In this document: piece by piece, positions 1,470-5,594 of the stretch
Numbering within the stretch: the first letter of the stretch is position 1
Layout: every line of letters begins with the position of its first letter
Virus record (IMG/VR): IMGVR_UViG_2663762627_000005
Span: 1 to 5,594 of that record
Strand: one strand, 5' to 3'
DNA length: 5,594 nucleotides
Source of the DNA: a virus
Taxonomy: Duplodnaviria; Heunggongvirae; Uroviricota; Caudoviricetes
Notes under the pieces: generated by a model
Seen by the model: the letters and a program-made list of their open reading frames with translations, nothing else
What the model was told of the DNA's origin: nothing
Databases searched by the model: none
Position numbers and translations under genes: made by a program

Positions 1470-1528
1470 ATTCTGCCGCGCCAGACACAACAACACGATT
1501 CATTGGCGTTGTGGCAAAAATGACACAA
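1470..1528 (-). promoter_or_regulatory. Psid-like late promoter: TGT-N12-ACA dyad (1511-1528) plus candidate -10 CAGAAT (1475-1470, minus strand)
   Basis: Exact TGTggcaaaaatgacACA at 1511-1528. The dyad centre is about 55-57 bp upstream of the predicted start site and about 80 bp upstream of the sid ATG, the geometry of Ogr/Delta-activated P2/P4 late promoters. Confidence 0.6.
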
Positions 1529-1708: not shown

Positions 1709-1790
1709 CTTCTGTTTTTCTCTGCCGATACCTTTAGACTTTATTTCGATTAAAAATCAAAAATATATAACTAAAAGAAATAGAAATTGC

Positions 1791-1844
1791 TGCATTGTAA
1801 TGCAGTGATTTGCATCTGTTTGCCAGCGTTTGCCTTTGTTTGCC
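1791..1844 (+). promoter_or_regulatory. Candidate operator/PLL-region elements: perfect palindrome TGCATTGTAATGCA and three GTTTGCC direct repeats phased at exactly 10 bp
   Basis: Palindrome at 1791-1804. GTTTGCC at 1818-1824, 1828-1834 and 1838-1844. Lies 130-180 bp upstream of the vis/alpA start, with an AT-rich tract (1740-1790) just upstream. Confidence 0.4.
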
Positions 1845-1973
1845 ATAGCGAAAAGTCAATGTTTGTTTCCACGAAAATCTCACATGACCTGAGGAAAAAT
1901 ATAGACATAATAAGGAGCTACCCGAAGCCGGACGGACACGACCGGCACCGTATGGACTTTATGAGGTAGCCCG

Positions 1974-3343: not shown

Positions 3344-5440
3344 ATGAAAATGAACGTAACGGAAACCGTAAAACAGGCGTGCGGTCACTGGCCGCGTATT
3401 CTCCCGGCGCTGGGTGTGAAGGTGATTAAAAACCGGCATCAGGCCTGTCCGGTGTGCGGCGGCTCTGACCGCTTTCGCTTTGACGATAAAGAGGGGCGCG
3501 GGACGTGGTACTGCAATCAGTGCGGCGCGGGTGACGGGCTTAAGCTGGTCGAAAAGGTGTTCGGTGTAAATCCGTCTGAGGCCGCCCGGAAGGTGAACGC
3601 CGTCACCGGTAATCTGTCGCCGGTTGCCCCGGAAGCGATTGCGGCCGCAGAAGCCGGAACCGATGCCGACCTCCAGGCGGCGGCCGCGCTGGCCGTCAGG
3701 CTCATGGAGAAAACCCGCCCGGCCACCGGCAACGCCTACCTCACCCGCAAGGGTTTCCCCGACCGGGAATGTCTGATGCTCACAGCCATACATAAAACCG
3801 GCGGCGTGACGTTCCGCGCCGGTGATGTGGTTGTCCCGCTGTATGACGATACCGGGGCGCTGGTTAACGTTCAGCTTATTAATGCTGATGGTCTCAAACG
3901 CACCCTGAAAGGCGGTCAGGTCAAAGGGGCATGTCATATCATCGAGGGGCAGAAACAGCCCGGAAAACGCCTGTGGATTGCGGAGGGTTATGCGACCGCG
4001 CTCACCGTGCATCAACTGACCGGCGAAACCGTCATGGTGGCGCTGTCCTCCGTGAACCTCCTTTCTCTGGCGAGCCTTGCCCGTCAGAAGTCCCCGGCCT
4101 GTCAGATTGTCCTCGCCGCCGACCGTGACCTTAACGGCGACGGCCAGAACAAAGCCGCAGCGGCCGCAGGAGCCTGCGAGGGCATTGTTGCCCTGCCACC
4201 GGTGTTCGGTGACTGGAATGATGCGTTTATAGAAAAAGGTGAGGAAGCCACGCGGAAAGCCATTCATAACGCCATCCGGCCACCGGCACAAAGTCCGTTC
4301 GACACCATGAGCGAGGCGGAATTTACCGCCATGAGCGCCAGCGACAAGGCGATGCGGGTGCATGAGCATTACGGCGAAGCGCTGGCTGTGGACGCGAACG
4401 GCCAGCTTCTGTCCCGCTATGAAAACGGCATCTGGAAAAATATCCCTGCCGCCACTTTTTCACGAAATGTTGCTGATTTATTCCGGCGCGTGCGTGCCCC
4501 GTTCTCGTCGGGGAGAATCACCTCAGTGGTGGAGACGCTGAAGCTGATTATTCCTCAGCAGGAGGCACCGGCGCGCCGTCTGATTGGTTTTCGCAACGGG
4601 GTACTTGATACCCAAAGCGGCCTGTTCAGCCCGCACAGTAAATCACACTGGCTGCGCACGCTGTGCGACGTGGATTTTACCCCGCCGGTGGAAGGGGAAA
4701 CGCTGGAGACCCACGCGCCAAACTTCTGGCGCTGGCTCGACCGTGCCGCCGGTGGCAGACCGGAAAAACGCGACGTGATACTTGCCGCGCTGTTTATGGT
4801 GCTGGCGAACCGCTACGACTGGCAGCTCTTTCTCGAAGTCACCGGTCCCGGCGGAAGCGGTAAAAGTATTCTCGCCGAAATCGCGACCCTGCTCGCCGGA
4901 GAGGATAACGCCACGTCAGCCGATATCGACACACTGGAAGACCCGCGCAAGCGCGCATCCCTGACTGGTTTCTCGCTAATCCGTCTGCCTGACCAGGAAA
5001 AATGGAGCGGTGACGGGGCAGGACTCAAAGCCATCACCGGCGGCGATGCGGTCTCAGTTGACCCGAAATACCAGAACCCGTACTCAACACATATTCCGGC
5101 GGTGATTCTGGCCGTGAACAATAACCCGATGCGCTTCACTGACCGCAGCGGCGGTGTGTCACGCCGCCGGGTGATTATTCATTTCCCGGAGCAGATTGCC
5201 CCGGAGGAACGCGACCCGCAGCTCAGGGATAAAATTGCGCGCGAGCTGGCCGTTATCGTGCGCCAGCTTATGCAGAAATTCAGCGACCCGATGGCAGCGC
5301 GCACTCTGCTCCAGTCGCAGCAGAACTCCGATGAAGCGCTCAGCATCAAGCGTGATGCTGACCCGACGTTTGATTTTTGTGGCTATCTGGAAATGCTGCC
5401 GCAGACCAACGGGATGTTGGTAATGGTGCCAACTTACTGA
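3344..5440 (+). CDS. alpha: P4 alpha-type primase-helicase, C-terminus apparently replaced by IS1-derived codons (native codons end near 5418)
   Basis: Start ATG 3344 (MKMNVTETV...) with GAGGGAG upstream; the track's earlier ATG 3293 lies inside the preceding gene. Zinc-ribbon CPVCGG...WYCNQCG, primase EGYATA motif, TOPRIM-like AADRDLNGDG, and Walker A GPGGSGKS (about 4844-4867). The last 7 codons and the stop (5420-5440) lie inside the IS1 terminal inverted repeat. 699 aa versus about 777 aa for P4 alpha. Confidence 0.88.
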   Translation: MKMNVTETVKQACGHWPRILPALGVKVIKNRHQACPVCGGSDRFRFDDKEGRGTWYCNQCGAGDGLKLVEKVFGVNPSEAARKVNAVTGNLSPVAPEAIAAAEAGTDADLQAAAALAVRLMEKTRPATGNAYLTRKGFPDRECLMLTAIHKTGGVTFRAGDVVVPLYDDTGALVNVQLINADGLKRTLKGGQVKGACHIIEGQKQPGKRLWIAEGYATALTVHQLTGETVMVALSSVNLLSLASLARQKSPACQIVLAADRDLNGDGQNKAAAAAGACEGIVALPPVFGDWNDAFIEKGEEATRKAIHNAIRPPAQSPFDTMSEAEFTAMSASDKAMRVHEHYGEALAVDANGQLLSRYENGIWKNIPAATFSRNVADLFRRVRAPFSSGRITSVVETLKLIIPQQEAPARRLIGFRNGVLDTQSGLFSPHSKSHWLRTLCDVDFTPPVEGETLETHAPNFWRWLDRAAGGRPEKRDVILAALFMVLANRYDWQLFLEVTGPGGSGKSILAEIATLLAGEDNATSADIDTLEDPRKRASLTGFSLIRLPDQEKWSGDGAGLKAITGGDAVSVDPKYQNPYSTHIPAVILAVNNNPMRFTDRSGGVSRRRVIIHFPEQIAPEERDPQLRDKIARELAVIVRQLMQKFSDPMAARTLLQSQQNSDEALSIKRDADPTFDFCGYLEMLPQTNGMLVMVPTY

Positions 5441-5594
5441 TTTAGTGTATCATGGTGTTTTTGAGGTGCTCCCGTGGCTTCCATCTCCATCAGTTGTCCC
5501 TCCTGCTCAGCTACTGAAGGCGTGGTGCGTAACGGTAAAAGTACTGCCGGACATCAGCGCTATCTCTGCTCTCACTGCCGTAAAACATGGCAAC
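5419..5594 (+). mobile_element. IS1 insertion sequence, left end (terminal inverted repeat GGTAATGGTGCCAACTTACTGAT) and start of insA; continues beyond the window
   Basis: 5419-5441 matches the IS1 terminal inverted repeat apart from a few variant positions, followed by the characteristic TTTAGTGTAT...GGTGTTTTTGAGGTGCTCC leader and insA. Confidence 0.9.
5474..5594 (+). CDS. insA: IS1 InsA (transposition repressor / N-terminal transposase part), 5' portion only
   Basis: GTG start at 5474. Translation (V/M)[39 protein letters not shown] matches the InsA N-terminus (zinc-finger CPSC...CSHC). ORF runs off the right edge. Confidence 0.9.

Follow-up and report, generated by a model that had tools for sequence, protein, structure and literature searches.

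Derepression of lysogens of the satellite P4 requires the cox gene of its helper phage P2, and Cox binds upstream of the satellite late promoter PLL at boxes spaced 10-11 bp apart (PMC3936717), a role with which the P2 RefSeq note on cox agrees. Recombination directionality factors (RDFs), the class that includes Vis of P4-like satellites, typically bind direct repeats placed one helical turn apart; Apl, the RDF of phage 186, combines low affinity for single sites with cooperative spreading; to bind efficiently, it requires three or more operators side by side (PMC7498355). Annotated in the phage 186 record are five Apl sites at attP (TTGACA, TTGCCA, TTGCCA, TTACCT and TCGCCA) and seven between pR and pL (TAGCCA, TTGCAA, TTGACT, TTGCCA, TTGCCA, TTGCGT and TAGCCA), which are experimentally defined and form direct repeats 10-11 bp apart. 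To our knowledge, Apl is known in 186 only as a repressor and excisionase, not as an activator, and there is only one known case in which a satellite senses that its helper is lytic, namely the action of P2 Cox on P4 PLL.

We analyzed a window of 5,594 nt, the whole stretch of DNA presented above, which its open reading frames (ORFs) and Pfam matches identify as a P4-like satellite with the gene order psu', delta, sid / ori / vis, CI RNA, alpha. The same two sources placed on the minus strand a truncated psu, the gene for an 81-aa Ogr/Delta zinc-finger protein (458-703) and a sid-like gene (700-1437/1503), and on the plus strand vis (1974-2240), an Ash/Icd-like ORF that covers the CI RNA region, cnr (DUF5375) and the gene for the alpha primase-helicase (3344-5440). 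The product of vis is an 88-aa excisionase/regulator of the AlpA family (PF05930, E = 3e-20) that is 70% identical to P4 Vis and has an identical recognition helix, and the sid-vis interval aligned to P4 at 78% identity. Rfam identified a C4 (CI) antisense RNA at 2452-2539, with its a1b1 target and isrK just 5'; together, these elements of the Ash/Icd-like ORF region (2299-2539) form a standard P4 immunity module. A 99.9% identical satellite is found at ssrA of Escherichia coli PSS-16. In the window, an IS1-family element at 5415-5594, recognized by its inverted-repeat end and an InsA N-terminus (PF03811, E = 9e-22), splits alpha near codon 692/777, and the C-terminal part that the intact PSS-16 copy still has is missing from the window copy. 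Because the insertion removes this part of alpha, the window copy is probably replication-defective. After alpha, the intact PSS-16 element contains a crr-like region (L004 18220-18500) with two clusters of GGTGAACAG / TGTTCAC iterons, which agrees with the bipartite ori/crr arrangement of P4.

Between sid and vis, the plus strand carries the heptamer GTTTGCC three times at exact 10-bp phasing (1818-1824, 1828-1834 and 1838-1844), as the initial annotation had reported, and vis is the nearest gene 3' of these repeats. Only one further copy occurs in the window, at 2638, and a 7-mer repeated three times at exact 10-bp spacing arose in none of 3,000 first-order Markov simulations of the window and in none of 3,000 simulations with intergenic composition. 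The array is longer than first described: TGC recurs at 1791, 1801, 1811, 1821, 1831 and 1841, giving six phased units (CTGCAT, ATGCAG, TTGCAT, TTGCCA, TTGCCT and TTGCCA). Its core (1808-1847, plus strand) consists of four 10-bp units, ATTTGCATCT, GTTTGCCAGC, GTTTGCCTTT and GTTTGCCATA, with the hexamers TTGCAT, TTGCCA, TTGCCT and TTGCCA at a spacing of exactly 10 bp; in all, three units are strong, one is moderate and two are weak. No Rfam family overlapped the GTTTGCC array. The number of GTTTGCC units differs among related elements (one in L017, two in the L011 type and three in the window, at 1818-1847), in steps of exactly 10 bp, as expected of slippage or recombination between repeats.

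The two weak units occupy a segment, TGCATTGTAATGCA, that had been described as a 14-bp perfect palindrome. Its reverse complement, however, is TGCATTACAATGCA, and the central GT is not self-complementary, so that the segment is an interrupted inverted repeat, CTGCATT-gt-AATGCAG (7+2+7; 1790-1805, plus strand). Folding of the single strand was no better than for shuffled sequences (z = -1.07), and a hairpin or cruciform role for the inverted repeat was rejected on these grounds. The arms of the dyad (CTGCAT and ATGCAG) are in register with the array, and the score change across them, about -4 bits, is roughly neutral. Relatives have CTGCAATGTAATGCATTG instead, in which the dyad is broken without compensation while TGCA is kept every 10 bp; the compensatory change expected of a palindromic dimer operator was not seen. 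Because TGC is phased from 1791 to 1841 and relatives keep the TGCA phase but lose the dyad, the palindrome appears to be two weak units of a single six-unit array rather than a separate dimer site. Of the composite operator proposed in the initial annotation, the cooperative array for protein binding on one helical face is retained, whereas the palindromic dimer site is not, given an imperfect dyad and uncompensated changes in relatives. A PhoP-box-like reading of GTTTG-N5 was also dropped, because the units of relatives (ATTGCCA and ATGGCCA) lack GTTT.

We then compared these units with the operators of phage 186, using a weight matrix whose only input was the 12 annotated Apl sites. The best three-unit array of the window fell at 1817-1846 and scored 33.1 bits, against a null of 11.2 ± 2.6 bits (maximum, 21.1; 0/500). 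Its three units (TTGCCA, 10.7 bits; TTGCCT, 9.6 bits; TTGCCA, 12.8 bits) were the top three single plus-strand sites in the whole 5.6-kb window, and the TTGCAT unit, which starts at 1807, scored about 6 bits. Across the 28.7-kb PSS-16 context there was likewise one high-scoring array (33.2 bits; runner-up, 12.5 bits), and the matrix scan found no Apl-type array in P4 (2.9 bits) or P2. The alpha iterons (TGAACA) also fitted a loose regular expression for Apl-type units, which was therefore abandoned.

Overall, the window array and the 186 operators share the hexamer consensus TTGCCA with similar degeneracy, direct repeats of 10-11 bp, a run of at least three adjacent units and the flank CTGTTTGCCA. 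They differ in context, since the 186 operators belong to a phage that encodes Apl, where they lie at the pR-pL switch or attP, whereas the window array belongs to a satellite that encodes none; it is also positioned upstream of a promoter, unlike the pR-pL operators, which lie between convergent promoters. Because the element is a P4-like satellite without an apl or cox homolog, the array would represent a heterologous copy of the Apl operator type, outside the switch of any phage that encodes the protein. When IMG/VR was scanned for three TTGCCA spaced 10-11 bp apart, the matches comprised unrelated contigs and 11 contigs that encode an Apl homolog (61-93% identity); in every one of these 11 the array lay directly 5' of apl, and in several another array was located next to int and a tRNA-derived att site.

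The position of the array has a counterpart in P4. According to the sid-vis alignment, the array sits between the origin iterons of the alpha protein and PLL. In P4 this place, flanked by the type 1 iterons and vis, holds three contiguous 10-bp repeats annotated as 'ori type 2 repeats', which on the other strand read TTAAAGTCA, TTAAAGCCA and TTAAAGCAA and fit the cox-box consensus TTAAA(G/C)NC(A/C). The P4 genome contains a single chain of at least three cox-boxes, at 9180-9208, and this chain coincides with the type 2 repeats. The P4 'ori type 2 repeats' are P2 Cox boxes; the database label hides their nature and is corrected here. Because the P4 repeats are Cox boxes, the known occupant of the array position is a set of operators for a helper-encoded RDF, not for a satellite protein, and we read the window array likewise. 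In both elements, tandem 10-bp units lie between the alpha iterons and PLL/vis, but the window unit is TTGCCA-like, with no cox-box chain in the window, and the two arrays are opposite in orientation, the window units being on the strand that faces PLL and the P4 boxes pointing away from it.

On the far side of the array from vis lies a P4-type origin core (1604-1708) with five perfect TGTTCACC iterons, at 1615, 1680, 1691 and 1701 on the plus strand and at 1658-1665 on the minus strand (5 copies versus 0.14 expected; 0/200 shuffles). They align with the annotated P4 'ori type 1 repeats', which the alpha protein reportedly binds. An A+T-rich stretch (1740-1789), inside the region homologous to the P4 rep_origin annotation, lies between the iterons and the array. 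The initial annotation had found no exact TGT-N12-ACA box on the vis side, and we agree: the sole intergenic copy, TGTGGCAAAAATGACACA, is on the sid side at 1510-1527, where P4 has TGTGCCAGCCCTGACACA. By analogy with the established late promoters of P2 and P4, this box is a candidate for the Delta/Ogr site of Psid, the leftward promoter. Inside this presumed Delta site lies one good Apl-type unit, TTTTTGCCAC (9.3 bits; 1512-1520, minus strand); the aligned place in P4 reads GTGCCA, and coincidence is possible.

On the vis side, a consensus scan and alignment to the P4 PLL region predicted a sigma-70-like PLL core promoter on the plus strand (1884-1911), with a -35-like ATGACC at 1884-1889 and a -10 element CATAAT at 1906-1911, from which transcription would start near 1917. 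The window promoter lacks a 10-bp segment, TTGTTGCCC, that is present in most relatives between the Delta box and the -10 element. More broadly, a comparison of 1884-1900 with L007-type relatives and with P4 shows that window-type elements are without the ~10-bp segment CTTGTTGCCC (CTGTTGCGTC in P4) that is elsewhere almost invariant between these two features. Their PLL is one helical turn shorter in its geometry, and window-type elements likewise have no TGT-N12-ACA box on the vis side. Further downstream, a conserved PLL leader, GAGCTACCCGAAGCCGGACGGACACGACCGGC (1915-1946, plus strand), which would form the start of the transcript, is present at the corresponding place in nearly all related loci, over a range that extends from E. 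coli to Pantoea. Its minus strand carries two overlapping Vis-type GTCCG motifs, and the leader can form a short hairpin (GCCGG...CCGGC in the window, CCGGA...TCCGG in P4); one might speculate that it is an RNA element or hairpin, or else the real Vis operator of PLL.

Given these matches in sequence and position, we favor, with moderate confidence, the explanation that the array at 1808-1847, with weak units extending to 1790, consists of operators for a helper RDF of the 186 Apl type at the position of the P4 Cox boxes. The array would then probably serve to sense the helper, and not to bind the satellite's own Vis. That Apl binds here, that it activates and what this does for the satellite are inferred. 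In P4, helper RDF binding, PLL activation and satellite derepression are documented, and activation of PLL by Apl is modeled on Cox at P4 PLL. Because the array lies upstream of a promoter and not between convergent promoters, activation is expected and not repression. When a 186-like helper turns lytic, Apl would be made as the first product of the pR operon, and Apl monomers would bind the phased hexamers cooperatively, head-to-tail, and introduce a bend about 70-110 bp 5' of the start of PLL transcription. As with P2 Cox at P4, PLL would be turned on, leading to expression of vis, epsilon, cnr and alpha, with Delta later, and a resident satellite would thereby be derepressed, able to excise and to replicate. 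Vis, as the RDF encoded by the satellite itself, would recognize other operators, namely (A/G)TCC(G/A) arrays at att/int.

Next, we looked at relatives of the window. Apl-type arrays scoring above the 99th percentile of shuffles were present, in either orientation, in 97 of 130 unique PLL-upstream regions from P4-like satellites; the P4 region scored at background, and cox-box chains were found among the 130 regions only in P4 and the P4-like contig L123. No Apl or Cox homolog was encoded in the satellite loci examined, so the binder of the array would come in trans. As for conservation of the repeat phasing in related satellites, suggested as a check in the initial annotation, the TTGCCA-type motif with its 10-11-bp phasing reappeared in both orientations, from E. 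coli to Erwinia, in upstream regions that otherwise do not align. Erwinia and Pantoea elements, whose Vis is 62-66% identical, contain GGCAAAC arrays, which are the same motif inverted and score as high as the window. Distances from the proximal operator to the conserved leader clustered at 70, 80-81 and 91 bp, corresponding to helical-turn steps, among sequences many of which are related.

We also surveyed 5,426 complete E. coli genomes, of which 980 contained a cox-box-type PLL region, 752 a P2-type cox, 36 a window-type array and 43 a 186-type apl; the frequencies of each operator type and of its helper gene thus run in parallel. Co-residence of the window-type array and apl was not enriched, with one E. 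coli genome shared between the 36 and the 43 (about 0.3 expected). PSS-16, which carries the near-identical element, was absent from the apl matches among the E. coli genomes. At least two IMG genome ids were common to the satellite and apl listings (80 loci each, compared by contig name), an overlap that is not significant. The shared E. coli genome is G47-1, where the array of a window-type satellite occurs alongside the TGGCAA operators of an apl prophage.

The initial annotation had proposed that Vis, as the likeliest binder, autoregulates a PLL-like promoter through the array. The array does lie 5' of a PLL-like promoter driving vis, but a Vis operator, through which the satellite's own AlpA-family RDF would bind the phased repeats, now seems an unlikely explanation. 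Several observations speak for it. Vis is itself an RDF, of the class that binds direct repeats one helical turn apart, and the array is just upstream of its gene. Vis is said to repress PLL and to enhance Psid in P4, and a Vis site has reportedly been mapped at P4 PLL. The HTH segments of Vis and Apl are weakly similar, and in view of the resemblance between their recognition helices (SRSTIY in Vis, SERTAY in Apl), some Vis affinity for the array units is possible. That Vis regulates P4 late promoters is also indicated by the title of Polo et al. 1996, as it appears in the reference list of PMC2603039.

Against Vis as the binder, an invariant DNA-binding surface faces a varying motif, the motif at att is a different one and the array units fit Apl operators. 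Vis homologs as little as 61% identical, from E. coli to Erwinia and with P4 Vis included, have an invariant recognition helix and wing, and yet the array motif can be TTGCCA, a cox-box, TGCAC-type, GTGCGAGGAT-type or none. Even among 80 listed loci whose Vis is at least 97% identical to that of the window, the upstream repeats belong to unrelated sequence types. P4, whose Vis regulates PLL, has cox-boxes in place of a TTGCCA array, while satellites with Vis only 62-66% identical have arrays that score equal to the window's. Covariation of the array with Vis residues was considered as a test and set aside as not feasible, because the DNA-binding segments of Vis are invariant; the array type is also physically linked to vis, which confounds any correlation with Vis clade.

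The arrays found near integration sites carry another motif. Phased (A/G)TCC(G/A) units at 10-11-bp spacing (for example, GTTGTCCGAG AACATCCGGC TAAATCCAGA) lie 5' of int, from the att core to the Int arm sites, in 67 satellites of at least four Int/att types, and are kept across Int types and tRNA/tmRNA sites. Chains of at least two such units were strand-specific and occurred in 58/67 att-int regions versus 6/1340 shuffles, and no chain of at least two was found on either strand of 1504-1973 in the window. PMC2603039, in a passage citing Cali 2004, reports that P4 Vis binds DNA in the attP region. The units form two clusters (L004 8367-8549, at attL of the PSS-16 element; L003 3966-4078, in P4; and the 67 loci of L085-L164). 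P4 Vis reportedly binds two boxes between int and core, and because the (A/G)TCC(G/A) arrays are located there, they are likely to be Vis boxes, with a consensus that could be derived from these regions. Like the window array, these are RDF-type arrays, from the same family of elements, in which short direct repeats follow each other at one helical turn, but they lie at att/int with a motif independent of Int type and integration site, whereas the window array is TTGCC at PLL. A Vis operator would share the att/int motif and be conserved wherever the Vis surface is conserved, and the array does neither. The presence of the array motif at att, tried as a further test of Vis, gave no match: GTTTGCC was absent from attL/int of the near-identical element, as was CTTTAAGTGG from P4 attP.

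An improbable alternative is that the array is a decoy, in which Apl-type operators on a multicopy replicating satellite titrate helper Apl and so disturb the helper switch or excision. The operator match accounts for this as well as for helper sensing, and because single-site affinity is low and spreading is cooperative, extra arrays could compete for Apl. Against a decoy, the operators have a fixed place and helical register relative to PLL in most relatives, activation has been documented at the homologous site of P4 and three to six operators make a small sink. Also quite improbable is an accessory role at the origin, with the array acting as 'type 2 iterons' that aid replication by way of alpha or a host factor, with no RDF involved. 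P4 records label the homologous repeats 'ori type 2 repeat' inside rep_origin, and the array adjoins the A+T-rich stretch and the alpha iterons, its neighbors in the same intergenic region with a similar 10-11-bp spacing. The type 1 iterons nonetheless differ from the array in sequence and lie 110 bp farther from vis, and they are highly conserved, being retained in more than 1,000 E. coli genomes, whereas the type 2 position switches motif completely. In addition, only type 1 repeats occur in crr, the other site required in cis for replication, the array is absent in some relatives and the P4 repeats are explained as Cox boxes. A chance or replication-slippage repeat without function is effectively refuted, for although slippage does occur, as the stepwise variation in GTTTGCC copy number (one in L017, two in the L011 type) indicates, 0/3,000 simulations gave the triple and the motif and phasing recur across unrelated flanks.

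Helper sensing through Apl-type operators thus remains the explanation we prefer. A helper RDF site upstream of a satellite PLL was already known for P2 and P4; Apl-type operators at this position appear to be new, and the literature searched made no mention of them or of their prevalence. More tentatively, and with somewhat less than even confidence, we suggest that the operators upstream of PLL in P4-like satellites form an exchangeable cassette for helper RDFs, and that this cassette sets which helper's lytic switch protein wakes the satellite. The cassette would consist of Cox boxes in P4 and most E. coli elements, of Apl boxes here and in most sampled relatives from Enterobacterales other than E. 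coli, and of further repeat types elsewhere. If so, the helper specificity of induction would be readable from sequence, and Apl would also be a trans-activator of its parasite's promoter. If array type tracks the helper RDF, a 40-bp motif would suffice to predict which helper a satellite pairs with, and this for the thousands of P4-like elements in Enterobacterales, few of whose pairings are established. The same arrangement would explain how satellites exploit SOS-inducible helpers of the 186 type, and would allow P4-based delivery systems to be retargeted to another inducing helper by swapping the operator cassette.

Finally, several relatives have other phased repeats at the array position, including GTGCGAGGAT repeats (L037, L090 and L118), TGCAC every 10 bp (L136, L157 and L159), TGGCCAAT / AAGGGCCAAC (L043, L058, L097 and L100) and further 10-11-bp phased units (L138-L140, L151 and L162), all of which may be sites of other helper RDF families. 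For GGCCAAT-type arrays, the IMG/VR pattern matches listed comprised only satellites and unrelated contigs, with no helper counterpart among them, and no such array was found in the switch regions of the WPhi Cox family. The Pe-Pc region of WPhi (L487 635-669) instead contains 15-bp direct repeats, CCTAGAAAGGACAGG and CCTAGAAGGGACTGG, which are 20 bp apart upstream of cox and resemble neither P2 cox-boxes nor Apl operators.
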